Virus record (IMG/VR): IMGVR_UViG_3300042691_036107 | Reading direction: 5' to 3' (one strand) | Source of the DNA: an uncultured virus (IMG/VR IMGVR_UViG_3300042691_036107) | Taxonomy: Duplodnaviria; Heunggongvirae; Uroviricota; Caudoviricetes | Length of the DNA stretch: 64,000 nt | Shown here: piece after piece, positions 39,783-64,000 of the stretch | Numbering within the stretch: the first letter of the stretch is position 1 | How the letters are laid out: each line of letters begins with the position of its first letter | Made by a program: the position numbers and the translations under genes | The notes under the pieces: generated by a model | Seen by the model: the letters and a program-made list of their open reading frames with translations, nothing else | Told to the model about the DNA's origin: nothing | Databases searched by the model: none

Positions 39783-40802
39783 ATGTCGAAGCTCAACCGG
39801 CCGTCTGAGGCGCTCGTTAATGTTCCGCGGGCGAAGTCCATTGTACGCCATCTTCGGACCCATGCCGTGCCTCTCGGTACACAACCGGCCAAGGTCTATC
39901 ACCTGCCGAACTGGGCGAACCTGACGCACCCGCAGCGTCTTGCTGTGATCCGGCGTATTGCGCTCAGCCGAGGGCGAGACCCGCACATCGCGAAGCTCGC
40001 GGTGTCGATCCTTCGCAAGTCAGGGGCTCAACCGCGCGAGTATGAGAAGCAGGCAGCGGCGCTGCTCCGTTGGATCCAGGACCCAGCGAACTTCTACTAC
40101 GTCAACGAACCCGGAGAACGCCTGCAGGACCCGCTCGTCACGATCAAGTTCAAGACGGGCGACTGCGACGATGCAGCGCTCCTGCTCTGTGCGCTCTTCG
40201 AGTCGCTCGGTCTGCCATGGCGTCTTGTCCTGTCCGGGCGAAACACGGTGACCAAGGAGAAGATCCGGTTCATCGAAGGGGACACGATTCCGTCTGATTG
40301 CGTCTGGACGCACATCTACTGCATGGTTGGGACGCCGCCGTTTCAGCCGACCAAGTGGTTCTTCTGCGAACCTACCGTGCGCGGCGTTCCGCTCGGCTGG
40401 GACGTGGTGAGCGGGGACCATAGCTATCTCCCTGAGATGCTGAAGTCCGGGAAGAAGGGACCTCCGGTCCTGATGCTTCCTCGGAAGGCCCCGGTTGGCT
40501 TCCGGGCGCAACGGCCTGTGGGCGACCCGAGCCCGGCGTACGAGATGGCGCTCGCAGGACCTGATCTGCCTCTTCGGCCGAACAACGGCCAGATCGGGGC
40601 TTCCGTCGGGGCTTCTGTCGCGGAGGCAGCGAGCCGTCCGGGCGCGCTGGACTGGGCGCGGATCGGGCAAGCTGTCGTCACCGGCGTTGCTGTCTCGGTT
40701 ACCACGCAGCTTCTGCTCGACTGGGTGAACGGGCGCGGCATGTGGGAAGGGTCCGGGCACCTCCTGCAACGGATGCACTACGCGATCGTGGGAGACAACT
40801 GA
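39783..40802 (+). CDS. transglutaminase-like (papain-fold) cysteine protease candidate
   Basis: GDCDDAALLLCAL, THIYC; C-terminal hydrophobic segment. Confidence 0.75.
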   Translation: MSKLNRPSEALVNVPRAKSIVRHLRTHAVPLGTQPAKVYHLPNWANLTHPQRLAVIRRIALSRGRDPHIAKLAVSILRKSGAQPREYEKQAAALLRWIQDPANFYYVNEPGERLQDPLVTIKFKTGDCDDAALLLCALFESLGLPWRLVLSGRNTVTKEKIRFIEGDTIPSDCVWTHIYCMVGTPPFQPTKWFFCEPTVRGVPLGWDVVSGDHSYLPEMLKSGKKGPPVLMLPRKAPVGFRAQRPVGDPSPAYEMALAGPDLPLRPNNGQIGASVGASVAEAASRPGALDWARIGQAVVTGVAVSVTTQLLLDWVNGRGMWEGSGHLLQRMHYAIVGDN

Positions 40803-43800
40803 TGCGCGCCCCTCGTCCGCCTCGCCCACCGCGGAAGGCTCGTCACCGTCAGGCCCGACGCAACCCGCCGATCCAGTCGGCGAACTTCCCGCAGACGCCT
40901 GCAGAGAAGCTCGTGGCTTCGTCTGCTCGTTCCGTGGCGCTTTTCCCGTTCAACCCGAAGGCGATTGCCTGGGCGGCTCGCGCATACGAGCTGGAGTTCG
41001 AGCACGCGAAGTACATGGAGAACGTGCGGAATTTTCTACGTGGTGTTCGTCAGGAAGACCTGCTTCAGCACGCGGATTGGGAACAGCAGCTCCTCAACTT
41101 CCCCGCGCTGACGCCCGCACTTGCAGGTTCCATCGGCCTCGACGCTGAAATGAAGGCTGTGTCGCCGCTGCCGAGCTACGGCTTGCTCGCCGGTGAAGGT
41201 CTGCCTGACGACTTCGAGCCGCTCGGTCCTTCGTCTGTGTCGAAGAGCGTGCGGTTCCGTCAGCGCATCATCGAGTTGGACGAGATGCTGAGCCACCCCG
41301 GCGGGCCTCGCATGAAGGTCATCGGGCACGTCGCCGACGGGGCCGTGCCTGTGGTCTTCGCCGCGTCTGGTCTCTCGGACGATCCAGGCGGGACGGCGCT
41401 CTACCCCTTCGAGTGGCGGGAGACGACGCGTTACGCAGCGTCCGAGGCTGACCGCAACCTGACCGGAGGTTTCTGGCACGACTTCGTGTTGATGCTCCTC
41501 CGTACAGGCGCTTGGAACGGCGTTGGCCCCGAACCGCACTGGTCTCGTACGGCGAGCGATCCCGTGCTCTGGATCGCGTTGCCAGAAGACCCGATCGACG
41601 AAGAGACGGGCGAGCAGATGGCTGCGACGGACAAGTTCATCAAGACCTTGTGCGTCGAGAAGGATGGCGTGCTCGACGCGCCGTCGCCGATGTTGTTGCG
41701 TCTGATTCGTGATGCCGCAGAAGACCTCGCGCGTCGTGCAGATCCGTTGCGCCTGCTGCTTCCTGCCGTCATGCAGGGGTTGCAGCGGCTGAATGCCAAG
41801 GAAGAAGCGGCTGAAGTGCTGGACGCGGAGAAGCGTCTGCGCGTGGCGAGTCAGTTGGCCGAAGCACGACTGGTCTTGAACTCGATCTTCGCGACGCGTC
41901 CTGAGCTGGCGAACATGACGGAGCGTGTGCAGGTCGAGAACCCGTTCGAGGGTCCGCCGATCTTCTTCGAGGGCTTCTCGAAACACACGGAGCTGCGGGA
42001 GACGCGCTCGCCGTTTTCGCGTGGAGAGCTGATTTCGCCAGATCGGGCATGGCGCACGGAAGTACGTTCCCGCAAGGATTACGGCGAGAAGCTCTACATC
42101 TACGTAGAGGGTGCGGGTCTCGTACGTGTCGACCGGAAGCAGATCGACGAGAACGGCGTGACCTATCAGATCACGCCAGCCTCGGCCGAGGCGCAGGGTC
42201 GCGCGCTGCTCGTGTTCTGGGAGCGCGCGCGTCAGGCGCAGGAGACGACGGTCACGGCATCCCGGGATCTTGTGAAGTTCGTACGGGCGTACGTCGGTTC
42301 GCTCATCAACGAGCTGAGCACGGCGACCGACTTGCCGATGGCGTTCATCGCGAACCCCGGCTGGCGGAAGTCCGAATCGGCGAAGGACAAGAAGGACGTT
42401 GTTCCTCGCTTCCTTCCGCTCGGGTCCAACGATGGGCAGACGCCGAGCTGGTACGGTGGGTCGCCGCTGTTGCGGCAGGTCCCGGCCAACCGATACGGCG
42501 CGTGTCGTGAGATCGGGGCCATTCTCCAGAAGCGTCTCGGGCTCCGGGGGCTTGTCGTGCGCCCGATGCTGCAGCTCGTGCGTATCGCGGAGGAGAGTAA
42601 GGACCTCCGCGAAACCCAGCCAGAGCTGATCTCCAGTATCCAGAAGGCGGACAAGAACTACCGGATGTCGCTCATCCAGGTCAGTCCGGGCCTGGCCACG
42701 AAGGCACTGATGATCAAGACGGTGGCGAAGCGCGGTCTCTCTGCGCGACCTGCCGTGACTTCGATCCCGCCGCAGAACGTGATCAAGGCCGGGTTCATCC
42801 TCTACGGGTGGGACGAAGAGCGGCAGGAGTACGGCCCGATCGGCGAGCCGTTGGTCCTGACGCGCGACAAGATGCGAGAAGTCGTACATCGCGCGAGCGC
42901 TCGTGCCCGGCAGCAGCACGCCGACTGGGAAGATCTGGTTGAGGAAGATCTGCCACAGACGAACTTCCCGTTGACGAGCAAGGCAGCCAAGGCGTTCGCT
43001 GCTGGGGAGCTGTCGCTGCTCGTGCTTCCAGAAGAGCGGGCGAAGGTGCTCGTCGGTCTGCCCCCGGGCGCGATGTTCCGGTCGGTGGTCGATGGCAAGC
43101 CGCTGTTCGTTCAGGTGCGCGGGCCGGTCACTTTCGACGAGATCGTGGCCCAGGAAGGCGGAATCCCTGCCTTGGCTGCCAGGTTCGGCATGAAGGGTGT
43201 CGTGTCGCAAGATCCAGACGAGGCGCTCCGGCAGTTCCTCGCTGCAGGGCCGCAGAACTGGGTGGCGATGTGGGCACTCGGGACCGAGTACGAGCCGGTC
43301 TGGGCCTTCGACGTGGCGCTTTCCGAAACGGAGCTGGGCGCGAGCGTCACAGGTGAGCCGGTCTACAACCCCATGCTGGCCCTGCGCGCGTATGCCGCGC
43401 ACAAGCTCGGGCTCCTGGATCTCGCAGCGTCTTGGCTTCCGAAGGATCAGCTCGCGCGGGCAAGCAAGGGCCAGGAGGGCGTGTCGTTGCCCCTCCCGTT
43501 CAAGCTGTTCGTGGCACTTCAGGTCGATCGGACCGATCTCAAGTTCCGTGAGCCGGCGTTCCGCAACTTGAAGCCTTGGGAGCCGGTAGTCGGGGGCCGA
43601 CAGGGTGTCGTGCTCGCGGAGATGCCGCTGCCGAAGTCGGCAGGCTCGAACATCCCGCTCATCATGGCGCTTGAAGAGCTGTTGTCCGACCGGAACGAGC
43701 CGCAAGGGTTTGTACCCGAGCCTCTTCCGAAGTCGACGATCCGCACCTTGATGCCCTCGCTGTTCCAGCTCTCCGGCGATTTCGCAGTTATTCGGCGTCG

Positions 43801-45487
43801 GATCAACATCTTCGCGCCGTCGATGGTCGTCAAGACGGAGATGTTCGATCGCGTTCTGGCCAAGTTGATCAAGAAGGCACGCGGAGAGGACGAAGAGGAG
43901 GCGAACAAGGTCGAGCTGACAGCAGAGGAAATGACGCAGCTTCGCACGGAGGCCTACTTCGGCTTGCTGCTGAACGGGTTGTCCGGCGCGGCTGCGGGCG
44001 GGCGTCCGCCGTCCATCGTCGGAGGCGGGCAAGAAGCCCTGCTCGCGCACGGAGGCGTTGGCGGTCGCGCGAAGACGGTCGGCGCTCAGCACTACAGCCC
44101 GTCGGCGTCGCAGAAGATCTGGGCCATCCGCGGCGCAGGTTCATTCGGGAGCACCTACGGTTTCGTGCGGCGTCTGGTCGAGCAGATCGGCGTTGTCACG
44201 GCCGAAATGCGGACGGACAAGGTTCCTGTGTTGGACCGCCAGGAGATGGAAGTCCTGTTCGCACGCCTGGGTATCGAGATCGAGAACTGGCAGGACACCG
44301 ATGAGGTGCTGTCTGCACTCGAACAGGTGAAGAAGGCCCTCTCGTCGGGCGAGCAGGCGCGCTACCAGCACAAGGTTGAGATGGGCCGCCTTCTCGAAGA
44401 TGCAGAGATGCCGGAAGACGTGCGGGGCTATCTCGACGAGATGGCCAAGCTCAACCCGCGAAAGGCTCGGCGGAACCCGGTCTCTGACATCGAAGCCGTG
44501 GTCGAGTACGTTCAAGACACGAAGAGTGGGGAGAAGCGGCAGCGCGCGGAAGGCGCGCTCGCTTCGGTCTCGGGGGTCGCTCAACGTCCGTTGACCTTCG
44601 ACGAGATCAACGCGTTGTTCCCGCGCAAGGGATCGCTCACGCCCGACACGTGGAACGCCACGGACCGGGTTCGTCAGGCTCTCACAGTCTACGACCCGAT
44701 TCGCCGTGTCGGGCGTCCTCCTGAAACAATCCGTGAGGCCGGTCGAGCCGCGCAGGACGTGATCGAGCCTGCCGCGATGGATTGGGCACGCGCGGAAGCC
44801 GAGCTGTCTCTCGATGAGGCGCTCGACATCATCGGCAAGCAGCGTGCTTCACGCCAGATGGCCCGCGCGATTCCGGCGTCTGCCGCGATCGCGCAGTTGC
44901 ACCGGAAGAAGCGTCTTCGAGATTATCGGCCTCCCATCAACCTCTTCGCTCACGGCCGAGATCAGGACGTGATCTTGTGGATGTCTCCAGATCAGTCTAC
45001 TGACGCCCGAGTCATCACGTACCGGCGGGGCGATCACATCGACGCAGACTTGCAGTCGCGCAACCCGCAAGATCTGCCCGAACTGCTCGGGCGTGCGATT
45101 CAGGCGTCCATGATCTGGCTGGCTGAGAAGGACACGCGGACCAAGCGGCGTCAGCTCTGGGTCGGTCGCATCGGCTTCCCGCACCTCGCGTTGGTCTGGA
45201 AGCCCGGGGATCCGCTGACGATCGATAACATCACGCGAAAGATCGAGACGCTCCTGAAGCGGGATGCGAAGGGCGATACCGCGCGCGTCTACAACAGGGA
45301 AGAGGACATGCAGAAGGACGTGCTGAACTTCCGAGCTGCATCCTACTCTCCGCTGCGCCAGAACGAAGAGCCTCCGCTGGCCCCAACGTCTTCTGCTCCT
45401 CCTCTTGCGTTGGAGGCCGGCGCTTCGTCTTCGGCGGGACCGACTTCGTTGTCCGCGGCCTGGGGAGATGACGACGACTTCAAGTAG
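40802..45487 (+). CDS. large hypothetical protein (~1560 aa) with RRNP motifs
   Basis: Long ORF; ARRNP at N-terminus and internally. Confidence 0.8.
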   Translation: MRAPRPPRPPRKARHRQARRNPPIQSANFPQTPAEKLVASSARSVALFPFNPKAIAWAARAYELEFEHAKYMENVRNFLRGVRQEDLLQHADWEQQLLNFPALTPALAGSIGLDAEMKAVSPLPSYGLLAGEGLPDDFEPLGPSSVSKSVRFRQRIIELDEMLSHPGGPRMKVIGHVADGAVPVVFAASGLSDDPGGTALYPFEWRETTRYAASEADRNLTGGFWHDFVLMLLRTGAWNGVGPEPHWSRTASDPVLWIALPEDPIDEETGEQMAATDKFIKTLCVEKDGVLDAPSPMLLRLIRDAAEDLARRADPLRLLLPAVMQGLQRLNAKEEAAEVLDAEKRLRVASQLAEARLVLNSIFATRPELANMTERVQVENPFEGPPIFFEGFSKHTELRETRSPFSRGELISPDRAWRTEVRSRKDYGEKLYIYVEGAGLVRVDRKQIDENGVTYQITPASAEAQGRALLVFWERARQAQETTVTASRDLVKFVRAYVGSLINELSTATDLPMAFIANPGWRKSESAKDKKDVVPRFLPLGSNDGQTPSWYGGSPLLRQVPANRYGACREIGAILQKRLGLRGLVVRPMLQLVRIAEESKDLRETQPELISSIQKADKNYRMSLIQVSPGLATKALMIKTVAKRGLSARPAVTSIPPQNVIKAGFILYGWDEERQEYGPIGEPLVLTRDKMREVVHRASARARQQHADWEDLVEEDLPQTNFPLTSKAAKAFAAGELSLLVLPEERAKVLVGLPPGAMFRSVVDGKPLFVQVRGPVTFDEIVAQEGGIPALAARFGMKGVVSQDPDEALRQFLAAGPQNWVAMWALGTEYEPVWAFDVALSETELGASVTGEPVYNPMLALRAYAAHKLGLLDLAASWLPKDQLARASKGQEGVSLPLPFKLFVALQVDRTDLKFREPAFRNLKPWEPVVGGRQGVVLAEMPLPKSAGSNIPLIMALEELLSDRNEPQGFVPEPLPKSTIRTLMPSLFQLSGDFAVIRRRINIFAPSMVVKTEMFDRVLAKLIKKARGEDEEEANKVELTAEEMTQLRTEAYFGLLLNGLSGAAAGGRPPSIVGGGQEALLAHGGVGGRAKTVGAQHYSPSASQKIWAIRGAGSFGSTYGFVRRLVEQIGVVTAEMRTDKVPVLDRQEMEVLFARLGIEIENWQDTDEVLSALEQVKKALSSGEQARYQHKVEMGRLLEDAEMPEDVRGYLDEMAKLNPRKARRNPVSDIEAVVEYVQDTKSGEKRQRAEGALASVSGVAQRPLTFDEINALFPRKGSLTPDTWNATDRVRQALTVYDPIRRVGRPPETIREAGRAAQDVIEPAAMDWARAEAELSLDEALDIIGKQRASRQMARAIPASAAIAQLHRKKRLRDYRPPINLFAHGRDQDVILWMSPDQSTDARVITYRRGDHIDADLQSRNPQDLPELLGRAIQASMIWLAEKDTRTKRRQLWVGRIGFPHLALVWKPGDPLTIDNITRKIETLLKRDAKGDTARVYNREEDMQKDVLNFRAASYSPLRQNEEPPLAPTSSAPPLALEAGASSSAGPTSLSAAWGDDDDFK

Positions 45488-45547
45488 TCGCCCGTGACGC
45501 GCTCGAATCAGAGCGTTACGTCATCTGGCGAAAGACGGAGTTGTCGG

Positions 45548-45913
45548 ATGTCTGATCTGCTGTTCGAGCACTCGCTGACGGACCGTGCGATCGAGGTCGC
45601 CTACGGTCGCGCGATCAAGGCCCAGGAAGACGGCTGGATCGGCTTCGCGCAAGCCGGTATGCGGGCTGCGCGAGCGCGTGATCCGAAGCTGCTCAAGGCC
45701 CTCGAACGCATGGCCGAGAGTACGTACAACCTCCAGGAAGAGCAGATCGGCCGGTTCATGCGTGATCCCAGCTCGACCTACGCTGAGTCGCGCGGCACGA
45801 CCGAGCATCAGCTCTGTCGCGAAGCGTTCCGGCTCTGCGATGAGGGGAACCCGATCGAGAACTTGTGCTGGATCTACGGCGCTGCCGCGTGGCTTTGTGG
45901 TTTTATCTACTAG
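45548..45913 (+). CDS. hypothetical protein
   Basis: GGAG RBS. Confidence 0.6.
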   Translation: MSDLLFEHSLTDRAIEVAYGRAIKAQEDGWIGFAQAGMRAARARDPKLLKALERMAESTYNLQEEQIGRFMRDPSSTYAESRGTTEHQLCREAFRLCDEGNPIENLCWIYGAAAWLCGFIY

Positions 45914-45915
45914 CC

Positions 45916-46185: not shown

Positions 46186-46276
46186 GCAGATAGCACTCCA
46201 TCTGAAGTATGGATCTTTCCCTGCACGCTGGGATCAAGGTAGACAGATCGAGGGGATCTCTGTCCCCGGAGGTCCG

Positions 46277-47338: not shown

Positions 47339-47595
47339 ACCTGATGAACATGGCCAAGATCCTCCCGCTGGTCACGCAGCTCGGGAACTACCTCAAGGAA
47401 GGCGTCGAGCACTACACGATGTTGAAAGCATCGGGCGTGTCCATCGACGCAGACCTGCTCGCCGCATGGCTCGGCGGGCGCATGAGCGCTTGGGACCCGA
47501 AGCTGTCGGGCCGATCGCTCCTCGACGACCCCACGCGCGAAGCGGCAGCTCGATTCCTGGCTGGCATCGCCATCAACTTCGTAGGTGCGAAATGA
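47335..47595 (+). CDS. hypothetical protein
   Basis: GTGA coupling. Confidence 0.6.
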   Translation: MNLMNMAKILPLVTQLGNYLKEGVEHYTMLKASGVSIDADLLAAWLGGRMSAWDPKLSGRSLLDDPTREAAARFLAGIAINFVGAK

Positions 47596-48239
47596 CTGAA
47601 TCCGAGCGCATGATCGCAGCGGCCCACGCCGAACGCTCCCGTTTCCTGGCTGGAATCGGGCCGGATCTGGCGCAGGACCTGGGATCCTTCAACCTGTCTT
47701 CGCTCACGAGCGTCTTCACCGGCGGCTCTTCGGGCGGCGTGGACTTCTCGGGCGAGCCTACTCTGACGGCGGGCTCGAAGGAGAAGGATTCCGTCATCAA
47801 GCTCCAGGACACCCTGGAACAGCTCGGCTTCTCTCCCGGGACGGTGGACGGTATCTTCGGCTCCAAGACGACCGCCGCGGTCAAGGCCTTCCAGGGCTCC
47901 GTGGGCCTGTCGGCTTCTGGGACGGTCGATGCCGCGACCTGGAAGGCGCTCGGCGACGCGCTCGGGGGGTCCGTGTCGGGCAAGAGCGGAGCGTCGAGTG
48001 GAAGCGGCAAGGGCGTCGAAGCTGTGACTGCCGGCCTCCTACTCGGCTCGTCGGCGTTGAACGCCTACTCGGCGGCGGCAGGGTCGAAGAAGAAGGGCAA
48101 GAAGGGCAAGAAGGCTTTCGTGCCGTCCGAGCCGTTGCCCTCTTCGGAGGGTTCGATCCTGCCCGTCGTCATCGGTGGGCTCGTCGTGGTCGGTCTGCTC
48201 GGCGGTGTCGCGTACTTCATGTCTCGGAAGTCGGAGTAG
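47592..48239 (+). CDS. peptidoglycan-binding domain protein with C-terminal TM helix
   Basis: VIKLQDTLEQLGF..DGIFGSKTTAAVKAFQ..GL.ASGTVDAATW. Confidence 0.85.
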   Translation: MTESERMIAAAHAERSRFLAGIGPDLAQDLGSFNLSSLTSVFTGGSSGGVDFSGEPTLTAGSKEKDSVIKLQDTLEQLGFSPGTVDGIFGSKTTAAVKAFQGSVGLSASGTVDAATWKALGDALGGSVSGKSGASSGSGKGVEAVTAGLLLGSSALNAYSAAAGSKKKGKKGKKAFVPSEPLPSSEGSILPVVIGGLVVVGLLGGVAYFMSRKSE

Positions 48240-48242: not shown

Positions 48243-48671
48243 ATGAGCACCCGTCGTGCACGCCGCGCTCGTACAATGCTGACGACCTTCCGGGCGGGGG
48301 CGGGTTACGGGGCGGTTTTCGCCCCGTCAAGCAAGTTCCAGCCTTACGGGTTTTCGGAGGCGTTGATCCCGCTCATCGGTGCGGGGAGCGCGCTTGCATC
48401 GACCTCCGTCACGACCATCGCGTCGGCTGTCCAGGCCGGGAAGAGTCGGAAGCATGACCTGGCGATGCAAGAGGGTTCTGGCAAGTTGGCGCTGAAGGAG
48501 TCCAAGCTCGCCGCGCAGCAGGCCAAGGTCGAAGCGGCGAAGGCTGCAGCAGAAGAAGCGAAGGCCTCGTCCACTCGCGCGGTGATCGGCTGGACGGCCG
48601 GTGCTGTCATCCTGTTGGGGCTCGCCGGCATCTTCGCCTGGACGTACGTGAAGAAGAACGAGGAGAAGTAG
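48243..48671 (+). CDS. small membrane-anchored putative virion protein
   Basis: C-terminal TM + basic tail. Confidence 0.7.
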   Translation: MSTRRARRARTMLTTFRAGAGYGAVFAPSSKFQPYGFSEALIPLIGAGSALASTSVTTIASAVQAGKSRKHDLAMQEGSGKLALKESKLAAQQAKVEAAKAAAEEAKASSTRAVIGWTAGAVILLGLAGIFAWTYVKKNEEK

Positions 48672-48672
48672 G

Positions 48673-49143: not shown

Positions 49144-49145
49144 AA

Positions 49146-54624: not shown

Positions 54625-54646
54625 GCCAGAACCGAGGAATCACGCC

Positions 54647-55204: not shown

Positions 55205-55452
55205 CTCGCGAGCATCGGCGTGCTGATGATCAGCACTTCTTCTTCGAGAATCGGCGGCGGAGCGTTCTCCAGCCGCCTGACCCCTTCGTGAGCCAGCAGG
55301 AAGTTGTAGCAGGCGTGTCGAACTAGATCTGACACGGTGACATGCTGTTGCGTCCGCTCGGACTCTTCCTCGGCGACTTCTTGAAGCCGGTCGAAGATTG
55401 TCTTCCGCATCCGGACGCGCATGAGGTGGTGCTTGTCATTCTGATTGGCCAC
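55201..55452 (-). CDS. ribbon-helix-helix transcription regulator
   Basis: LMRVRMRKTIFDRLQEVAEE...TVSDLVRHAC. Confidence 0.7.
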   Translation of the reverse strand: MANQNDKHHLMRVRMRKTIFDRLQEVAEEESERTQQHVTVSDLVRHACYNFLLAHEGVRRLENAPPPILEEEVLIISTPMLAS

Positions 55453-55656
55453 TTTGAACCTCCCTCGATCGGAGTCAAGGGGTTGGCGAATATTTAGAAG
55501 GCACTGAATCGTAGCACTCGCGCACCATGATCACCAGTTGTCCAAACAAGATTCTCGTATGAGACTGATTCTGCAATCACGCGTGAGGTCCACGTGGACT
55601 CGGCGCTGCCGCCCCTCTCCGGGGCAATCCTGATCAGCAACCCAAGGAGGGAGTCC

Positions 55657-57294
55657 ATGCCGGTCTCCGCATTGCAGAACCCGAACGATCGTCGGCGCAT
55701 CAACAAGATCGCGCGTCTCGCTGTCAAGGCCAAGGCCACGAACCCCGCGGAGATCCGCGCGGCCGTCAAGACCTGGCTGGAAGAGAGCAAGAAGCCCAAG
55801 AAGCAGCGGTCCGCCGCGTTCCAGCGCGGTGACGGCAAGGCGGCGATGAAGCACATCGCGTCCGGCCAGGCCAAGAAGCAGACGGCGAGCCAGAAGGCCC
55901 AGTACGCCCGCGTCCGTCGCGAGGTCGCGAAGTCGTTTGCGGCGCTCGGCGAGGGCTACGGTCCGTCGCGCGGTCGTCGTGGCCGCAAGGTCTCCTACGC
56001 CGGCCGTGCGGTTGCCGCGAAGGCCTCCCGCTACAAGCTCCAGAAGGCGACCAAGAGCGGCCCGGCGAAGGTCGAGAAGGACAAGCGCGGTCGTCGGATC
56101 GTGTCGAAGTCCGGCACGCAGCACTGGACGAAGAACCGGGCTGGCCGTCGTGGTCAGGACCGCTGGGGCAAGGTCGTTCCGTGGGTTCCGCTCGCCGAGG
56201 AAGGCAAGCGTCGTCCCGCGAAGTCCAAGCGCGGTGGTCCGGGCACGGCCTTCTCGGCGGCGTACCCCGAGGCCTTCGCTCGCGCTTCCGGCGGCTCCGC
56301 GCCCCGCGGCAAGAAGAGCAAGAAGAACCCGTTCGGCGCCCTCGCGCTGAGCAACTCGGGTGCGGGCGTCCTCGGCGGCACCGTCGGTGTCGTCCAGCAC
56401 CAGGCCCTGCCGCTGGCCCTCGGCCTCGCGACCGGTGCCGGTGTCCACGCCGCCGCCGTCGTCTTCGACGTGCCGGGTCGTGTCTCCGAGCGCGTGCCCT
56501 TCCTCGCGAACGTCCTCGAAGGTCCCGCCGCGTACACCGCGCAGGGTCTTCTCGTCGGCATCCCCGCGATCGCGGCGGGTCTCGCGGTTCGTGGCACGGC
56601 GGGTTCGTACCTGCTCAGCACCAGCGTCTCCGCGATCGCGTTCGGCGTCGCGACGGACTTCTTCAACTTCGTGGTCGACCGCTTCGGTGGTGGCAGCGAC
56701 AGCAGCGTGGACGCTGAGCTGGACGAGCTGGGCGACCTCGCGCTGACCAACGGCTTCGGCGACCTCGCCCTCACCAACACCAGCGCCCTCGGCGGCGTCG
56801 GCTTCGGTGACGGCATGGCCTACCAGACCGCTTCGCTGTCGGCCTCGGGCGTCGGCGACTACGCGCAGTCGAACCTCGCGGACGCGATGTACTCGGGCGC
56901 GGACTTCTCCTCGGATGAGGGCGCGGCGCTCGTCAACGGCCGTGAGTCCTGGATGAGGCGCTTCGGTGGGGCTCCCCACCGCGTCTCCGTGACCGGTCGC
57001 GGCAGCGGGCCCTCGCACCTCGCGGGTCGCGAGGGACACCGTTGGGGCTGGCTGATCAAGACCGTCGGTTGGGAGAAGGCGCAGGAGATCTGCGCTCTCG
57101 CCCCTGCCAAGCGGGTCGCGATCCTGAAGAAGATGCGTGAGACGGCTCTCGCGACCTTCAATCAGGAGATGGCGGCGGCCTCGGCCGCGGCTTCCACGAC
57201 GGCAGCCCTCCCGGCGGCCGGCACCGTGGCCACCGGCGCGTTCGGCGCCGAGAGCAACTTCCTCGGCGAGCCGGCCCTCTTCGCGGGCGCCTAG
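55657..57294 (+). CDS. K/R-rich core-like protein with central hydrophobic domain
   Basis: AAGGAGG RBS; basic N-half, hydrophobic middle, GDLALTN repeats; strong codon bias. Confidence 0.8.
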   Translation: MPVSALQNPNDRRRINKIARLAVKAKATNPAEIRAAVKTWLEESKKPKKQRSAAFQRGDGKAAMKHIASGQAKKQTASQKAQYARVRREVAKSFAALGEGYGPSRGRRGRKVSYAGRAVAAKASRYKLQKATKSGPAKVEKDKRGRRIVSKSGTQHWTKNRAGRRGQDRWGKVVPWVPLAEEGKRRPAKSKRGGPGTAFSAAYPEAFARASGGSAPRGKKSKKNPFGALALSNSGAGVLGGTVGVVQHQALPLALGLATGAGVHAAAVVFDVPGRVSERVPFLANVLEGPAAYTAQGLLVGIPAIAAGLAVRGTAGSYLLSTSVSAIAFGVATDFFNFVVDRFGGGSDSSVDAELDELGDLALTNGFGDLALTNTSALGGVGFGDGMAYQTASLSASGVGDYAQSNLADAMYSGADFSSDEGAALVNGRESWMRRFGGAPHRVSVTGRGSGPSHLAGREGHRWGWLIKTVGWEKAQEICALAPAKRVAILKKMRETALATFNQEMAAASAAASTTAALPAAGTVATGAFGAESNFLGEPALFAGA

Positions 57295-57380
57295 TTCGCT
57301 CCCTGTGATGCCGGCGCCGAGCTGATCGGCGCCGGCTCACGCAACCAGTTCTTCGCTTCACCTTCTCTCTGGAGTTCACC

Positions 57381-58058
57381 ATGAACCCGCTCGTTTCCCC
57401 CGGCGCCGGCCCCATCCCGGGCGTTCCGGCCCAGCAGCCGACCAACCTGTTCCGCTACGGCGAGATCACGCTGTACTCCTCGCACGCCTTCCCGGCGGCG
57501 ACCGCGCTGGCGAACACCGCCAACCGGATCTTCGTGACCGCGCTCGGCTCGCAGGGCCAGGGCTTCACCGGCGCGCTCACCAAGAGCGAGACCAACCTGA
57601 AGGAATCGGGCCGTATCCCGTCGGGCCAGGCCTACGACGTGTACGGCGTCGCGACCCAGGTCCTCGCGGGTACGTCTGAGGCGAGCCTCGCGCTGCCGTT
57701 CAACGACGCGACCGCCACGGTCGCGGCGCTCCAGAACATCGTCAACAACGGCGTTCTGGCCTGGGACTTCACCCAGACGAACATCGACATCTGCCCGGTC
57801 ATGCTGGCCGGCGCCGGTGGCGGTGTCTACGGGTCGATCTCCCAGAACGCGGCCGGCGCCAACGCCGGTGCGATGAACAACGGCAACGGCGGCATCTGGA
57901 TGTACCGCAAGCACCCCGTCGCGCTCCCGGGCTCGACGACCTTCGCGGTCATCATCCAGTTCGGCAGCCGTGCGGCGGCGATCCCCGGTGGCTTCGCGGT
58001 GTCCATCCGCGTCGTCCTCCTCGGCTACTACCGCAGCGTGATCGAGATCGGCAACTAG
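57381..58058 (+). CDS. candidate single jelly-roll major capsid protein
   Basis: 225 aa, beta-rich, strong codon bias, double terminator; TKSETNLKESGRIP motif recalls vertical single-jelly-roll capsids (unverified). Confidence 0.5.
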   Translation: MNPLVSPGAGPIPGVPAQQPTNLFRYGEITLYSSHAFPAATALANTANRIFVTALGSQGQGFTGALTKSETNLKESGRIPSGQAYDVYGVATQVLAGTSEASLALPFNDATATVAALQNIVNNGVLAWDFTQTNIDICPVMLAGAGGGVYGSISQNAAGANAGAMNNGNGGIWMYRKHPVALPGSTTFAVIIQFGSRAAAIPGGFAVSIRVVLLGYYRSVIEIGN

Positions 58059-58064
58059 TCGCAT

Positions 58065-58143
58065 TCAACCTGGGTTTCGGCTCAGGTTGACTGCTACGAC
58101 GACCAACCCTCGGGTGCTTCGGCACTCGGGGGTTGTGTCGTTT
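58065..58143 (+). terminator. two tandem UUCG hairpins
   Basis: TCAACCTGGGT-TTCG-GCTCAGGTTGA and AACCCTCGGGTGC-TTCG-GCACTCGGGGGTT...TTT. Confidence 0.75.
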
Positions 58144-58568
58144 CAGAGACCGAGGTGAGGCGGGCGCGGCCGAACTCCGGCTTCCAGCGACTGAACATCG
58201 TGAACATCGTAGTAAATGGGGTCGCCCCAAACGAACTCGGCGATCGCATCGGCACGCCGCTCGATCGTGAGCGGGAAGTGAGGCGGAAGCGCGACAACAC
58301 CAGAAAGATCGACGATGTGACCGATCTCGTGACGGATGATCGCGTCTGTGCGGGCTTGTGATTGCTGCTCGATCTTCCGGGCGAACGTGAGCCAGAACTG
58401 AGTGCCGTCCGTCTTGGTTGTGGCAAAGCCTCTTGCGGACGAGAAGTGGGCTGACTCCCCGAAGTCCCAGCTCACCTGTACGCCGCCCAGCTCAGGGCAC
58501 TTCTGGCACGCTTCGGTCCACCGCTGCTGCAACAGTCGTCCTACTGAGGTGTTATGCGTCATGGACAT
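58143..58568 (-). CDS. HExxH metallopeptidase-like protein
   Basis: IIRHEIGH...ERRAD. Confidence 0.6.
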   Translation of the reverse strand: MSMTHNTSVGRLLQQRWTEACQKCPELGGVQVSWDFGESAHFSSARGFATTKTDGTQFWLTFARKIEQQSQARTDAIIRHEIGHIVDLSGVVALPPHFPLTIERRADAIAEFVWGDPIYYDVHDVQSLEAGVRPRPPHLGL

Positions 58569-58580
58569 TTGGAGTACCTC

Positions 58581-59333
58581 ATGCGAATGTGGAGTCCCGA
58601 AGAAGATGCACGGACGCTGGCTGAACAAGGTGTCGAAGTCTGGGCGCATGTTGTCAACGCACCTGGCCGCTACTACGTGTCAAATCTCGGGCAAATCGGA
58701 AGTACAGTCGTCGGGCGTGTTCGTCCACTCAACCCTACTCGAATGAACAGCGGTTATCTGTCCGTTGGAATCTACGAAGATCGAGGGGAGCCCGCAACTA
58801 CCTGTCTGATCCATCGACTCGTTGTCGAAGCGTTCGACGGCCCCGCGCCTGAAGGCAAGACCGACGTTCGTCATCTCGACGGGAACCCACAGAACAACCA
58901 CCTGACCAACCTCTGCTGGGGCACGCGGTCGGAGAACATGCTCGACGTGCTTCGGCATCGACAGATAGGACGGCCCGCACTTCCATCCGAGATCGAAGGC
59001 GAGAACTGGTATCAGGGGTACACGGCGGACAGCTATCTCGTGCAGACTGGGTTGGAGTTCTTCGCCGAACGGAAGCTCGATCTTGTCGATCTGACTCGAT
59101 TCTGGCGTTGCTCACGTGATGTGGCGGCGAACATCGTGCGCGGCGTGACTCGGAAGGACGTGAACCGGCCCGAGGGGGTTGATGCGGCCCGGCGACAGCG
59201 CCGTCCCCCCGCAGAACGCGAACTCATCCTACGCCTCATCCGCGAGGGGAAGTCGCGTGAGGAGGTCAACACGACGATTCAGGGTAAGCCGCTGACGCAT
59301 CAGGACTTCTACAACTACAAGCAGCGAGTCTAG
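58581..59333 (+). CDS. NUMOD4-HNH endonuclease
   Basis: YYVSNLGQI, IHRLVVEAFDG, VRHLDGNPQNNHLTNLCWGTRSEN. Confidence 0.85.
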   Translation: MRMWSPEEDARTLAEQGVEVWAHVVNAPGRYYVSNLGQIGSTVVGRVRPLNPTRMNSGYLSVGIYEDRGEPATTCLIHRLVVEAFDGPAPEGKTDVRHLDGNPQNNHLTNLCWGTRSENMLDVLRHRQIGRPALPSEIEGENWYQGYTADSYLVQTGLEFFAERKLDLVDLTRFWRCSRDVAANIVRGVTRKDVNRPEGVDAARRQRRPPAERELILRLIREGKSREEVNTTIQGKPLTHQDFYNYKQRV

Positions 59334-59399
59334 AGCACCCGATCTTGTCGCCTGACCGCGCGATCCGTCGTACGATGATTGCGCCAACAGGGACGAATC

Positions 59400-61400
59400 A
59401 TGTCGAGTCTCTACTCGTTCGAGGGCTCCAGTACCACACCCGCGGCGCCTGATTCGGGTGTCGTCTCATCGGCCAACAGCTCCAGTACGCCGTTGGCCGG
59501 CGGTGCGACCTTCACGGGAACGTTCGAAGACCTGCTGCCGTACGCGAACCTGTCCGTCGCGTGTGCAGTCACGCCGACGAACGCGACGGGAACGGTTTAC
59601 GCGGACTTCTCGACCAACGGGGTCGATGTTGACTCGACGGTTTCGTGGCCGATCGCGAACGGTACGATCGGCGTGCCTCACTTCCTGACGACCAGCAGGC
59701 GGTATTACCGCATTCGAGTGGTCAACGATGCGACGCCCCAAGTGACGATGCGCTTGCAGGTGTTGCTCTACTACACGGCCCGCATTGCGATCCCGACGAC
59801 ACGCATCACGCAGACGATCGATCCGTACTCGGACGCGCTCAACGCTCGCGCCGTGATCAACGGGGCCAACCAGAACGGAACGACCTTCGCTAACGTCGGT
59901 ATCTCTGAACGTGATGCTCTGCGCGTCGAGATGGCCGGGCCGTTGGGGGCGTTCGGCGAACTGATGACGATGGAACTGAACCCGCGGGTTCAGATTGACG
60001 CTGTGTATGGGCTGCCCACGACGGACACAGAGACGTTCACAGGTTCGACAGGTAGCGCGACCGGAGTGAACAGCCTCTTCACATGTCAAACTGGCGTTGG
60101 TATCGGCGGTTACGGCGTCATCCGTTCCAGGCGCACCGTGCGCTACATGCCAGGTCAAGGGCTTCGGCTTCGCTTCACCGCAGCTTTCACATCACCTGGC
60201 GCTGCGTTGAGCCTGCAACTGGCTGGAGGCTTCACAAGCACAGACGGACTGTTCTTCGGGTTCAACGGCACGAGCTTCGGCCTCTTGCGCCGCATCGCGG
60301 GCGCAGCCGCGATCATGCGCCTGACGGTCACCGTGGGCACGGGAGGCGCGGAGACAGCAACCGTCACGCTCAACGGCGTTGGCTTCGCTGTGGCTCTCGG
60401 GGCAGGACTCACGACGGCGCGCGTGGCTGAGGAGATCGCCGAGCGCGTGGGCGGGTACACGGGCTGGACGAGTGCAGTGTCTCCGCAGAGCAACGGCTCG
60501 ACTGTCACGTTCATCCAGGGCACGCCAGCTACTACGGCAGGCGCGTTCACGCTCACTTCCACCGGAACCGCGGCAGGAACATTCGCGACTGTTCAGGCCG
60601 GCGCGGCGAACGACGACACGACAGGTTTCGTCCCCCAAGCGAGTTGGAACGTCGACACACTCGATGGCTCGGATACGGCGAGCAACCCGTCGGGCATGAT
60701 GATCGACCCGACCAAGCTCAACGTGTTCGAGATCGTCTACCCTTACCTCGGGGCAGGCTCGATTCGGTTTCGCGTGCAGACTACGAACGGGAACATGGTG
60801 ACAGTCCACCGCATCGAGTACCCGAACACGGCAACGATCCCGAGTCAGAAGAACCCCGTCTTCCGTTTGGGTTGGATCGCCGCGTCACTGGGTTCCACGA
60901 CGAACCTCACGGTTATTGGTGCTTCTGCGGCCGGTTTTGTCGAGGGCCCGCAGTTTACCACGCGAGATCCATTTACGTTCAGCACGAGCTTCACAGCGGA
61001 CACGAACAACTACGTGGCATTCGCGCTCAGGTCGCGGGGTGACTTCGGGGGGACTGTCAGCCAACGCCTTGTCCTGCCGCACACGTTGATCACAGCACTT
61101 GAGACGACGAACCGTGTTGTTCGTCTTCAAGTCTACATCAACCCGACGCTCACAGGCATCGTGAACTGGCAGTACGTGAATCAGTCGTTGTCTTGCATGG
61201 AGTACGCGACGATGACCGCGATCACGCCGTCCGGCGGAACGATCGTGTCGTCTGGGGCTGTGCCGAGCGGTTCGCCTTACGACATGGAGATTCACGAGTT
61301 GGACCTGCGCCTCGAAGCAGGGGACATCATCGTGGTGACCGCCCAGGCCGTTTCAGGTTCGGCCGTGCTCTACACGTCGATGAACTGGCAGGAGATCTGA
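59400..61400 (+). CDS. beta-rich putative virion spike/receptor-binding protein
   Basis: T/G/A-rich 666 aa; RYMPGQG, DGLFFG, YLGAGSIRF; ends WQEI. Confidence 0.65.
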   Translation: MSSLYSFEGSSTTPAAPDSGVVSSANSSSTPLAGGATFTGTFEDLLPYANLSVACAVTPTNATGTVYADFSTNGVDVDSTVSWPIANGTIGVPHFLTTSRRYYRIRVVNDATPQVTMRLQVLLYYTARIAIPTTRITQTIDPYSDALNARAVINGANQNGTTFANVGISERDALRVEMAGPLGAFGELMTMELNPRVQIDAVYGLPTTDTETFTGSTGSATGVNSLFTCQTGVGIGGYGVIRSRRTVRYMPGQGLRLRFTAAFTSPGAALSLQLAGGFTSTDGLFFGFNGTSFGLLRRIAGAAAIMRLTVTVGTGGAETATVTLNGVGFAVALGAGLTTARVAEEIAERVGGYTGWTSAVSPQSNGSTVTFIQGTPATTAGAFTLTSTGTAAGTFATVQAGAANDDTTGFVPQASWNVDTLDGSDTASNPSGMMIDPTKLNVFEIVYPYLGAGSIRFRVQTTNGNMVTVHRIEYPNTATIPSQKNPVFRLGWIAASLGSTTNLTVIGASAAGFVEGPQFTTRDPFTFSTSFTADTNNYVAFALRSRGDFGGTVSQRLVLPHTLITALETTNRVVRLQVYINPTLTGIVNWQYVNQSLSCMEYATMTAITPSGGTIVSSGAVPSGSPYDMEIHELDLRLEAGDIIVVTAQAVSGSAVLYTSMNWQEI

Positions 61401-61475
61401 TCGTACGCGTAGCACTCGGATCTCCTTCCGGTTCTTCCACCTCGCGCTAGAATCAGACAACGCGAGGTTCTCAAC

Positions 61476-62039
61476 ATGTCTCACGACCAGTACCGCTCCG
61501 CCAACGTCGCGATGCCGTCGTCCGCTCAGCTTGGCGGCAACCCCGACGCGGGCGTGCCGTCGTTCATCCGGTTCCCGTTCTACCCGACCTCGCCCTGGTA
61601 CTCGACGAATCCCAACGTCGGCTATCAGGTCCGGTACTACTCGACGGGCGTGCTCAGCTCTGATCTCGACTTCGCCGTTGGGTCCGAACTGATGCGGACG
61701 ATCCAGTTCGACCTGCCATGCCGCGTGATCGGCTTCAACGGTGCGTCGGTCGACTTGACCACGCCGTCGACCGGCCCAATCAACGAGTCGAACATGAACC
61801 TGATGTACCTCATGCGTGTCGAGTACACGATGGGGGACAAGCTGCACACGTCTGCGCGGCTGGGTTCTACGGTCGTCGGCACCGCCCAGCGCCCCGGCGA
61901 GATCGGCGGTCACGGCTACAACATCGATCAGGGTGCGTCGCTTCAGGTGTTCATCACGCCTCTCGTGGCAGACATCCGGATCGACATCACCGCGATCTGC
62001 CTGGAGATGCGCGCGCCGCGCAACTACACCATTCGGTAG
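61476..62039 (+). CDS. putative minor capsid/vertex jelly-roll-like protein
   Basis: 187 aa beta-strand pattern in the structural cluster. Confidence 0.5.
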   Translation: MSHDQYRSANVAMPSSAQLGGNPDAGVPSFIRFPFYPTSPWYSTNPNVGYQVRYYSTGVLSSDLDFAVGSELMRTIQFDLPCRVIGFNGASVDLTTPSTGPINESNMNLMYLMRVEYTMGDKLHTSARLGSTVVGTAQRPGEIGGHGYNIDQGASLQVFITPLVADIRIDITAICLEMRAPRNYTIR

Positions 62040-62047
62040 GAGGCTCC

Positions 62048-62758
62048 GTGCCCCAGGATTACCCGACGCAGTTCGGGCGGAGCGACCTCTACCCGAACTC
62101 GAACGGGACGATCCCCGCTCCGCCGCCCAATCCCGCGAACGTCCCCGTTCCGCTGTATTTCAGCGCGACGGCGACGTTTACCTGGACGTTGTTCCAGACC
62201 ATCACCGAAGTCGACGTGAACGCGGCTTTCCCTCCCGGGTATGTCTTCCGCTCGACTTGGACTTCGCCGGCCTTCGACCTTCGCCCGGACATGCGTTCCG
62301 GGCAGGGCGCTGCGAAGGAAGGCGCTGCGATCTGGAGTCGGTCAGCCCGGCTCTACTACACGCTCATGGCGCCCTCTACAGGCACGGGATCTCGTGCCGG
62401 GTTGTCGACGCTCAACCTGAACGTGGCCGCACAGAACTTCACGGCTCCCGTGGTGAACATCACGAACATGGGCGCGCCTGCGGAAGGCATCAGCGCAGGC
62501 GCTGGACTTCAGGCTACCCCACCGACCGACGTGTCTGGTCTGTTCGCGGTGCCCCCCGGTCTCGGAACAGCCGTGACCTCGGTGTTGGTCGGCTTCGCGC
62601 CTCCGGGCACGACACTCGGCATGGGCGAAGGCTACCCGATCCGCTACTGGCGTCTTCAGCTCACCTTCGATCAGTTCGTTGCCACCACGACGCGTCCTGT
62701 GCCTGTCACGCCTGATGTGTCTCCTACCTCCTACGCCTTCGTGGCCGCGGTGTACTAA
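62048..62758 (+). CDS. putative structural protein
   Basis: AGGAGG RBS + GTG. Confidence 0.6.
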   Translation: MPQDYPTQFGRSDLYPNSNGTIPAPPPNPANVPVPLYFSATATFTWTLFQTITEVDVNAAFPPGYVFRSTWTSPAFDLRPDMRSGQGAAKEGAAIWSRSARLYYTLMAPSTGTGSRAGLSTLNLNVAAQNFTAPVVNITNMGAPAEGISAGAGLQATPPTDVSGLFAVPPGLGTAVTSVLVGFAPPGTTLGMGEGYPIRYWRLQLTFDQFVATTTRPVPVTPDVSPTSYAFVAAVY

Positions 62759-63264
62759 TGCCGAGCATCGACGCGAACCCGGCATCCGGCGCCTCCGTCG
62801 TCGCGACCGCACAGGTTCTGTACCGGCGACTCGTGATTTTCAAGGGCGTGAGCAACTTCGGTCCGAACCCCGGCGTTGTCACGAATTCGGCGACGACGAT
62901 CCGGACTGAGACGACCGTGGCGGTCAACAGCCTGCGGACGGTGATGTTCCACCTGTTCCTGTTTCCGCAATACTTCCGCACGGATGTCACCTTCCTCGCG
63001 CGGAACACGCTGGCTTGGCGGCCTGTGTTCCAGATGCCGCCCGACTCGTACGCGAACGGCGGAACGGGAAGCTACGTCGATGTCGCGACGAACGACTGGC
63101 TGCCGTTCTGTGCGCCACTCTTGCTTCCTGTCGGCGTGCCTTCCATGTTCGAGGTTCCATGCGGAGGCGCCGAGCGCGTCGCGATCGAAGTCTTCGCACC
63201 CGACGACGTGCTTCCAGCAGATCAGGGCCAGGACCAGATTCTCGTTTCCATCTCTGCGTCGTGA
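62758..63264 (+). CDS. putative structural protein
   Basis: TAATG coupling; beta-rich. Confidence 0.6.
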   Translation: MPSIDANPASGASVVATAQVLYRRLVIFKGVSNFGPNPGVVTNSATTIRTETTVAVNSLRTVMFHLFLFPQYFRTDVTFLARNTLAWRPVFQMPPDSYANGGTGSYVDVATNDWLPFCAPLLLPVGVPSMFEVPCGGAERVAIEVFAPDDVLPADQGQDQILVSISAS

Positions 63265-63271
63265 GGCTCGC

Positions 63272-64000
63272 GTGCGTCCAGGCGATCGGATCGTTCTCCA
63301 GGGTCAGCCCGGTACGCTCCAGCGGCTGATGCCGCAGGGGATGGCTGACGTGCGCCTGGACGGGCGGACGTTCGACCAGCGATGTGCGCTCGATCGATTG
63401 CAGCCGCTCGCGAAGAGCAACCCGGCCCGCCGGAACCCTCGACCCGATCGTCTTGCCCGGCGCCCGCGCCGGGCTCGCCGTAACAGCGGCGAAGAGGTGG
63501 ACAGCGAGGGAGTGGCGGAAGCTGCAGCCGCCGCAGCCGCTGCTGAGGCCGAAAGCGACATGCGTGCGCGGCAGCAAGCCCGTGCCGCCCGTACCGCCCG
63601 TGCAGAAGCGGAAGCCGAGCGCGTCGCTGGGCAGCAGTTGGAGAAGAAGGCTGCCCACCGGATGGCGTCGTTCGACCTCGACACCGTGCGGCGGGAAGGC
63701 GCTCGCGTTCATGTTCGTCAGGATCGGCCTCGTGTCGCTGTCGACTCGACAGGACAGCTCGCCTACACCGGCAACCCAATCGACGGCGCGGCCTACTACT
63801 TGATCGTTGATGAGAGCACGAAGGACGACTGGAGCTGGGTCAAGACGCAAGACGTGTTCAACGCAGCGCAAGAAACCCGAACGCTGCCCGAGAACGCGGT
63901 GCTGTACGGGGGCGGCCGGAGTGTGGCTGTTCAGTCTAGCAAGTCGCTGCCGTCCATCCTTGGCGAGTTGGGCTTCTACGAACTCGACCGCCGACTCCAG
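63272..64000 (+). CDS. 3'-truncated protein with N-terminal PGDR (SH3-like) domain and RRNP motifs
   Basis: Manual: MRPGDRIVLQGQPGTL...KSNPARRNP...RARRNSG; open to window end. Confidence 0.7.
   Translation, partial: MRPGDRIVLQGQPGTLQRLMPQGMADVRLDGRTFDQRCALDRLQPLAKSNPARRNPRPDRLARRPRRARRNSGEEVDSEGVAEAAAAAAAAEAESDMRARQQARAARTARAEAEAERVAGQQLEKKAAHRMASFDLDTVRREGARVHVRQDRPRVAVDSTGQLAYTGNPIDGAAYYLIVDESTKDDWSWVKTQDVFNAAQETRTLPENAVLYGGGRSVAVQSSKSLPSILGELGFYELDRRLQ

Follow-up and report, generated by a model that had tools for sequence, protein, structure and literature searches.

We analyzed a 64,000-nt stretch of DNA (the window) from a 116,965-bp contig that IMG/VR records as an uncultured virus (IMGVR_UViG_3300042691_036107). 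Its right-hand part appears to be the virion module of a large tailless icosahedral double-stranded DNA (dsDNA) bacteriophage with a portoglobovirus-like shell, a protein-condensed genome, and proteolytic maturation, a composite interpretation that we hold with moderate confidence. The module itself is real and conserved, and the group of large tailless single jelly-roll phages that it represents is apparently undescribed; a full-text literature search, which did not reach subscription journals and supplements, found no description of it. The window (81 genes by a codon-based calling script) was scanned against Pfam and PHROGs as 70 open reading frames (ORFs; 34 in 35397–64000 and 36 in the left arm), the other 53 kb of the contig lying outside all window scans. 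Homologues of the capsid protein candidate described below gave a set of 85 loci (661 kb, GC content 32–69%), comprising three IMG/VR loci, the best 80 of 166 metagenome loci, and two species-genome loci. Five IMG/VR records served as relatives (G002–G006), four of them entire and G006 minus its final 1,099 bases; the 95 called genes of G003 were scanned as 96 ORF pieces, and of the 150 called genes of G002, 126 were scanned.

The 225-aa product of the gene at positions 57381–58058 is very probably the major capsid protein (MCP). Among the 48 genes of at least 150 aa, this gene ranks lowest in effective codon number (30.4), and its GC content at third codon positions is 0.95 against a median of 0.79, so that the strong codon bias noticed in an earlier reading of the sequence alone (the sequence-only reading) was borne out. 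A hairpin pair 3′ of its stop codon (−57.3 kcal/mol, z −7.8) was more stable than all 200 shuffled sequences; the same reading had described a double terminator, of which one clear terminator stands, as only the second hairpin has a T-rich tail and the other is a plain hairpin. The protein has 630 relatives, counted as clusters, at E ≤0.001 (283 among 50%-identity representatives), and the best 120, self excluded, share 65–82% identity. Gene order and strand in the module were the same as in the window in 57 of the 58 loci holding at least three module genes. One match to the MCP profile was found per genome in the window, G003, G004, G005, and G006. None of 106 diverse homologues matched a PHROG capsid family, nor did the window protein match a Pfam capsid family; tblastn against 50,697 phage records and a sequence search of the PDB with the profile gave no match, and an exact-peptide scan of IMG/VR with the 225-aa protein alone yielded 0 of 13 candidates.

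The AlphaFold model of the MCP candidate (predicted local distance difference test [pLDDT] score 78) is a predicted eight-stranded single jelly roll. Its top structural matches are satellite panicum mosaic virus (SPMV; Z 7.4) and, in second place, Sulfolobus polyhedral virus 1 (SPV1; Z 7.1, root-mean-square deviation [rmsd] 3.6 over 136 residues), and its language-model neighbors include the PM2 P2 and PRD1 P3 families at low scores (0.76–0.77). Several results count against assigning it to a portoglobovirus-like shell: the cement proteins of the tailed phages Pam1 and KHP40 score level with SPV1 (Z 7.0), every Z-score is below 8, Foldseek found no PDB match at E 0.001, and the Atlas taxon labels of its neighbors read “Uroviricota.” The model thus supports a jelly-roll fold, as far as a prediction can, but does not fix the lineage; the jelly roll may be of the vertical type. 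The capsids of P23-77, SH1, and HCIV-1 had been named as the comparison to make. Both tested proteins did model as single jelly rolls, but no specific kinship to those capsids emerged: HCIV-1 chain 6h9c_D (Z 5.2) and HHIV-2 chain 6h82_b (Z 6.0) stood among unrelated jelly rolls, and P23-77 VP16/VP17 were not among the listed matches, a listing that does not exclude them.

The second of these proteins (187 aa, 61476–62039) agrees with the earlier mention of further beta-rich ORFs. Its model (pLDDT 68) shows a single jelly roll preceded by an N-terminal arm that is disordered, and the protein did not match the MCP profile. Its best match was HHIV-2 6h82_b (Z 8.3, rmsd 3.1, 102 residues), with unrelated beta sandwiches no more than one Z unit behind. 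That chain is probably the penton VP9, because residue 39 is the first in its model and, according to PMC6414509, disorder affects the first 40 penton residues.

Two kinds of unusual MCP homologue were also seen. Five proteins of 286–400 aa (P0205, P0210, P0212, P0264, and P0273) join a degenerate MCP-like domain to unrelated N-terminal parts and are possible exapted capsid domains, and four compact homologues of 195–200 aa (P0203, P0211, P0223, and P0230), whose longest contigs are 4–21 kb, hint at a small-genome branch.

Head-tail genes, packaging motor, and genome size

The 70 window ORFs contained no terminase, portal, HK97 capsid, or tail family, in agreement with the lack of such motifs reported earlier, and the only “head and packaging” PHROG rows fell on ORF 59379 and on the peptidoglycan-binding part of ORF 47310. 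The most informative relative was G003 (72,988 bp), which we treated as complete and circular because it has a 127-bp terminal repeat and because G004 crosses its junction (5.9 kb at 78% identity). Besides the full module, it encodes PolA, a uracil glycosylase, an integrase, Sak4-like and Rad50-like ATPases, NUDIX hydrolases, two SNF2 helicases, and peptidases of the M23 and M15 types. Its 96 ORF pieces gave no credible match to a terminase, portal, capsid, or tail family and none to Terminase_6N; the weak rows were portal matches that fall on a NUDIX domain and on a coiled coil (E 0.004) and a 50-aa tail match (E 6e−4). The module therefore occurs in a genome free of terminase, portal, and tail genes, which upholds the earlier claim of a tailless virus. 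Two facts temper this: CheckV rates G003 as 53% complete, and it is the single complete relative examined, 44 kb shorter than the contig of the window.

These observations bear directly on whether the window could come from a tailed phage that uses the 225-aa jelly roll for cement or decoration and has its head and tail genes elsewhere on the contig. The scores of the Pam1 and KHP40 cement proteins and the Atlas labels speak for it, as do the PolA, SNF2, rIIA/B, and ParB genes of relatives, which are typical of tailed phages, and a Terminase_6N match in G002 (12.6 bits, below cut-off). That match, however, falls in an AAA gene (phrog_2376), and the circular G003 largely refutes such a phage. 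The 65–82% identity among the best 120 homologues, in loci of such varied GC content, also argues against it, decoration proteins usually conserving less, as does the link to the cultured phage SSIP-1 set out below. We consider a tailed phage very improbable.

The earlier expectation of a packaging ATPase outside the window was not supported by G003, the one complete relative and a shorter genome, which had no FtsK/A32-type ATPase: neither Pox_A32 nor DUF87 profiles matched, and the only two classical Walker A motifs in six frames lie in the Rad50-like and Sak4-like genes of its replication block. Across the 85 loci, no credible Walker A gene was found in the module; the 13 pattern matches were mostly incidental in core proteins or off-frame, and one of the 13 lies near the end of a 1335-aa protein (L057). 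Assembly without a dedicated motor is thus the alternative toward which we lean. A tailless virus with an ATP motor is rather unlikely; the motor would be a host enzyme, an ATPase without a classical Walker A motif, or one that only the larger genomes encode. A precedent is the structural RadA/KaiC-type ATPase gp40 of SSIP-1, which is a 44-kb phage with a membrane and T=49 symmetry (PMC6260650, PMC6356626); the window has an AAA ATPase at position 3553 (phrog_1297), G002 has several, and several conserved module genes are without a function. However, gp40 has no homologue in the 85 loci, in G002–G006, or in the window, and the phrog_1297 ATPase, which has a DUF2201 gene as its partner, lies outside the module and is absent from G003; the Walker A result in the loci points the same way. 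The gp40 gene itself (L086:24775–25737) matches AAA_25, RadA, and KaiC models, not FtsK/A32.

The genomes are large, as the sequence-only reading had proposed. Beside the 116,965-bp contig of the window, MCP-bearing contigs measure 135,764, 149,746, 167,369, and 175,072 bp; one of 309,903 bp is possibly host DNA, and a 377-kb contig also carries a homologue. The linear G002 (136,910 bp) has six left-arm genes in common with the window and stops at the transglutaminase gene of the module, which means that the complete genome must be well above 137 kb. A bacterial host is indicated by an extracytoplasmic function (ECF) sigma factor and by the genes for M23, M15, and peptidoglycan-binding proteins. 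A scan of 185,579 species genomes found an MCP homologue on two contigs of 2–3 kb, both in bins, which we did not accept as evidence of the host. That there are just two also argues against a plasmid-like or cellular locus for a protein compartment or membrane vesicle, as do the lysis enzymes and DNA polymerase of the IMG/VR relatives and the homology to a virion protein of a cultured phage. A ParB-like gene, the G003 integrase, and the homologues on the 310- and 377-kb contigs would suit such a locus, which we nevertheless judge the least probable of all the explanations.

Anchored proteins, core protein, and the Asn-Pro/Gly tag

Hydrophobic C-terminal anchors were called in 6 of the 31 genes beyond position 39700 and in 1 of the 46 before 34900. 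Five are clear (47610, 48276, 48673, 49146, and 54647), while the sixth, at 61476 (Kyte-Doolittle [KD] value 1.73), is probably a beta strand. The run of C-terminally anchored proteins described earlier is therefore present, including a peptidoglycan-binding membrane protein with both its domain and its anchor (Table 1). The basic core-like protein was likewise confirmed: residues 1–245 of the 55594–57294 product hold 62 Lys/Arg against 15 Asp/Glu, followed by a hydrophobic stretch and an acidic linker, and the protein has a conserved N-terminus (LPPLSGAILISNP), a polycationic arm, and six Asn-Pro or Asn-Gly sites.

The protein encoded at 39783 has C128, H177, and E196 in all 120 homologues and a hydrophobic C-terminal segment in 118 of them. 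These residues match the Cys-His-acid triad of transglutaminase-like cysteine proteases (PF01841), and the corresponding activity is predicted from sequence. The protein is homologous to the SSIP-1 structural protein gp34 (HHalign 97.2%, E 3e−11, 238 columns; hidden Markov model E 3.4e−11), and the homology takes in the anchor. Together with the anchored proteins, this link makes an inner membrane quite likely. Two further proteins (P0369 and P0371) are transglutaminase-NUDIX fusions in which Tyr-Gly tags flank the NUDIX domain, with a C-terminal anchor.

A short tag, (hydrophobic/basic)-x-Asn-(Pro/Gly), recurs on the soluble module proteins and on the basic core protein. In the window, the module contained five [RK][RK]N[PG] motifs against 0.4 expected, a count that 300 shuffles never reached, and the left arm contained one (0.4 expected); control motifs with Asp or Gln were not enriched. 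In G003 it occurred 31 times in the structural blocks (2.2 expected) and once elsewhere (0.7 expected), the block boundaries having been drawn after the genes had been inspected. The form [RK][RK]NP numbered 11 in G003 and 13 in G004 (0.4 in shuffled sequences in both cases), where the DP, QP, and reversed-motif controls were flat. The tag takes a hydrophobic form in core proteins and is often repeated there in tandem: the 52 of 65 homologues that were long enough contained 378 N[PG] sites, compared with 178 after shuffling (maximum 207), and their N-terminus has a conserved AILISNP. In SSIP-1, the annotated structural proteins hold five copies of the pattern [RH]EN[PG], picked after the sequences had been inspected, where 0.12 would be expected, and there is one copy outside them; for the wider pattern [RKH]xN[PG] the count is nine (2.7 expected).

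Whether the tag is cut is evenly balanced; we give its being a maturation cleavage site about the same weight as its not being one. Tandem GLALxN repeats in the core proteins and internal tags in proteins of 1200–2500 aa resemble polyprotein sites. Weighing on the other side, the tag beat all shuffles in only 14 of the 31 loci of at least 8 kb, and its occurrences are concentrated on basic tails and on proteins that are soluble (79 vs 8.7), while the ectodomains of anchored proteins, on the side of the enzyme domain, are nearly tag-free (1 vs 0.8) and bear another tag, [GAS]YG (37 vs 17.8). A strict G-hydrophobic-G tag was weak in this family (38 vs 24.7, shuffle maximum 36). The distribution of the Asn-Pro/Gly tag would suit the same virus with that tag as an uncut docking signal, a strand plus an Asn turn, by which cargo and the core protein are brought to the capsid or to a hub protein, the enzyme instead trimming Tyr-Gly tags on membrane proteins. 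Pro or Gly following Asn favors turns, and YG(A) on both sides of the NUDIX domain in the two fusions fits such trimming. The tags of G003 lie within 25 residues of protein ends in 15 of 32 cases (about 5 expected), where cutting removes little; in the pooled loci, however, this clustering is weak (11 and 3 vs 7.8 each), and the polyprotein-like sites also speak against docking, which on the whole seems to us unlikely, though not markedly so. Tagged at their ends in G003 are an M23 peptidase (L097:17984–20000), a GNAT acetyltransferase (L098:1643–2326), and NUDIX hydrolases (L095:12248–12670), which suggests that these enzymes are packaged cargo.

If the tag is cut, the Cys-His-Glu enzyme at 39783 is a tentative choice as its protease, and we are more inclined to doubt this assignment than to accept it. 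The enzyme may instead cut the Tyr-Gly tag, which is located on its side of the anchor, and the protein at 50069, with invariant His, Glu, Asp, Lys, and Tyr, could serve the Asn sites. Spontaneous Asn cyclization could also serve them.

Gene layout and neighboring genes

The features of the module are listed in Table 1. The module had been taken to start at 39783, but it opens at the coiled-coil gene 35634, homologues of which lie upstream of the transglutaminase gene in G002, G003, G005, L036, and L073. A NikA-like (ribbon-helix-helix) gene at 34973–35410 (minus strand) is divergent from it, and G003 has a NikA-like gene in the same place. Among the 85 loci, neither the ECF-type sigma factor at 39186 nor the protein at 59400 had a homologue. 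The protein at 40802–45487 matched no family in Pfam, PHROGs, or a further profile scan, although its C-terminal part is kept in five loci. In the protein at 50069, Y165, K169, D172, Y177, H179, and E183 are invariant across 32 sequences, and its profile gave no PDB sequence match. The small antisense gene at 55201 probably encodes a DNA-binding regulator, and long relatives have genes of 800–1760 aa at the position of the last ORF. Two HNH endonuclease genes lie within the module (50785–51660 and 58554–59333); the second follows the MCP terminator, and its homologues in 13 of the 85 loci suggest that this site is an insertion hot spot. No tRNA was found, nor any sigma-70 promoter in 54500–64000, and DNA repeats were not informative.

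Table 1. Features of the virion module in the window
Feature	Positions	Strand	Evidence and remarks
Long coiled-coil protein, first gene of the module	35634–38057	+	Uncertain start codon; the ORF is open from 35397
ECF-type sigma factor, an insertion within the module	39186–39644	−	PF04542, PF08281; TIGR02937 above cut-off
Transglutaminase-like cysteine enzyme, membrane-anchored, candidate maturation protease (C128-H177-E196)	39783–40802	+	PF01841, E 7.3e−9
1561-aa protein, candidate internal polyprotein; RRNP at Asn21 and Asn1225, KLNP at Asn1218	40802–45487	+	
Conserved 121-aa protein, no assigned family	45548–45913	+	12/85 loci, also G003–G005
Conserved 83-aa protein, no assigned family	47344–47595	+	15/85 loci
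Peptidoglycan-binding protein with C-terminal membrane anchor	47592–48239 (in ORF 47310; ATG at 47592)	+	PF01471, E 2.7e−18; C-terminal segment KD 2.51
Three proteins with C-terminal hydrophobic anchors (48276–48671, 48673–49143, 49146–50072)	48276–50072	+	Anchor scan
Conserved 215-aa protein, candidate second enzyme	50069–50716	+	37/85 loci
C-terminally anchored protein, KNNP motif close to N-terminus	54647–55204	+	
Short, conserved gene in antisense, located upstream of the core gene	55201–55452	−	43/85 loci
Basic core protein	55594–57294	+	67/85 loci
MCP candidate, single jelly roll, 225 aa	57381–58058	+	630 homologues; fold model; codon bias
Two stable hairpins, the second (58104–58135) terminator-like	58058–58145	+	
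Variable insert coding for a low-charge 666-aa protein, a spike or receptor-binding candidate	59400–61400 (ORF 59379)	+	phrog_1645 “virion structural protein,” E 1.6e−22; phrog_5838
Second single jelly-roll protein, 187 aa, penton candidate	61476–62039	+	47/85 loci
Two conserved low-charge proteins (62048–62758, 62758–63264), candidate vertex proteins	62048–63264	+	28/85 and 6/85 loci
ORF start with KSNP and RRNP motifs, continuing past the window edge	63272–64000	+	

In the left arm, an AAA ATPase gene (phrog_1297) is followed by a DUF2201 metallopeptidase/vWA gene (3553–6017), and G002 has three such pairs. An 843-aa protein (11668–14199; phrog_2426) with a homologue in G002 can be read as vWA-like from its DESGS motif, and a 452-aa protein (16185–17543; phrog_6077) we take, from its N-terminal motifs, to resemble a GHKL/rIIA-type ATPase. 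A 394-aa protein (29510–30694) is 43% identical to a G002 gene and weakly matches phrog_1362; a G003 gene close to the same block has a weak DUF932 match. G002 also encodes about 14 tandem paralogous repeat proteins (L101:6478–20000 and L102:1–1128; phrog_7713/923/15350).

Proposed assembly and comparison with known systems

In the assembly that we propose, capsomers, which as in SPV1 are probably hexamers, would be built from the 225-aa jelly roll, and the vertices from the one of 187 aa. The anchored proteins, the peptidoglycan-binding one included, would sit in an internal membrane, with roles in assembly and cell-wall penetration. With no dedicated packaging motor, DNA condensation and the recruitment of cargo enzymes would fall to the polycationic core protein and to further tagged proteins of basic character, and the jelly-roll shell would close around the condensed genome as the anchored proteins organize the membrane. 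Proteolysis at the Asn-Pro/Gly tags would then free the internal proteins, the membrane-anchored Cys-His-Glu enzyme being the leading protease candidate, and the peptidoglycan-binding and lytic proteins would act at entry. A bolder proposal, which we put forward tentatively and regard as possible, is that these phages are a widespread order-level group of 73 to >170 kb with motor-free encapsidation around a chromatin-like core, tag-loaded cargo, and adenovirus-like proteolysis, with SSIP-1 as their only cultured, aberrant relative; if so, no other prokaryotic viruses with a single jelly roll would come near them in size.

The tailless dsDNA viruses with a single jelly roll that have been described from prokaryotes are a few extremophile isolates of 16–44 kb. 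The present group is common in metagenomes (630 MCP clusters and 166 loci), and its genomes are several times larger than those of known kin. With no Pfam or PHROG capsid family match and genomes of this size, it is missed or mislabeled by marker-based surveys.

P23-77, SH1, and HCIV-1 had been suggested as relatives. With the Helvetiavirae/Singelaviria (Sphaerolipoviridae, Simuloviridae, and Matsushitaviridae: SH1, HCIV-1, HHIV-2, and P23-77), the group shares single jelly rolls, which here are predicted; theirs stand vertically over an internal membrane, and an HHIV-2 chain is the best match of the 61476 protein. PMC8812541 gives these viruses two MCP genes and an FtsK-HerA ATPase, and ICTV abstracts give genomes of 16–30 kb. 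Neither two MCP genes nor an FtsK-HerA/A32 ATPase was found here, the ATPase having been looked for in G003. With one MCP gene per genome, these viruses are not the nearest relatives, and SPV1 and SSIP-1 fit better.

[quoted passage not shown] The present group resembles the Portogloboviridae in its two jelly-roll genes, the lack of a packaging ATPase in G003, and its polycationic core protein, features known here from genes. The Portogloboviridae, however, are archaeal (Sulfolobales) viruses of approximately 20 kb with no polymerase, whereas the genomes here are 73–117 kb and more and encode PolA; the ICTV profile of that family mentions no protease or tag, and no sequence homology to SPV1 was found, though no search was aimed at it. 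Genome size also tells against motor-free assembly, since the published motor-less jelly-roll viruses are of 7–20 kb (PMC8459092 and PMC5894146), the double jelly-roll viruses of the Odin group among them at 7–11 kb (PMC5894146). If more than 100 kb is indeed packaged motor-free, the group would be an exception to the rule of thumb by which a large dsDNA virus first forms its shell and then pumps in the DNA. A state with a single MCP and no motor, which PMC8812541 proposes to be ancestral, would then exist in bacteria and at large size.

The cores of adenoviruses and asfarviruses have basic precursors with a short repeated motif, a virion cysteine protease of the Ulp1/adenain family, and Gly-Gly sites. 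The present group is similar in its basic core proteins with a repeated motif and its candidate virion cysteine protease. It differs from these eukaryotic, double jelly-roll viruses in having a transglutaminase-fold enzyme and Asn-Pro/Gly motifs, at which cleavage is here only presumed.

SSIP-1 is the nearest cultured virus, and the kinship is real but distant, with the capsid fold linked indirectly. As in the window, the transglutaminase-like gene of SSIP-1 follows a coiled-coil gene (ORF33, which has no significant sequence match), and SSIP-1 shares a bacterial host, a sigma factor, many C-anchored proteins, and an Arg/His-Glu-Asn-Pro/Gly motif in its structural proteins. The SSIP-1 capsid protein candidates, of about 210 aa, are similar in predicted fold, by an indirect comparison. 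The Atlas model of gp46 has a template modeling (TM) score of 0.62 over 172 residues to a cluster of 218 aa and 82 members, and the top feature match of the window 225-aa protein (0.99) has the same descriptors, 218 aa and 82 members. The best-TM BFVD match of the MCP model, I1ZBH9 (TM 0.47), is 211 aa long, the length of gp46, with which it may be identical. Set against this kinship, comparison of MCP sequence profiles with gp45/gp46 was not significant, nor was the link to ORF35, and searching SSIP-1 with the profiles of 14 other module proteins gave no match at E <0.04. SSIP-1 also differs in its 43.8-kb genome, its paralogues gp45 and gp46 (26% identical), and its structural ATPase gp40, whereas this group has one MCP gene, genomes of 73 to >160 kb, and a replication module with PolA. 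A direct biochemical test is possible through the tag and the enzyme conserved beside it, and SSIP-1 offers a cultured phage in which to make it.

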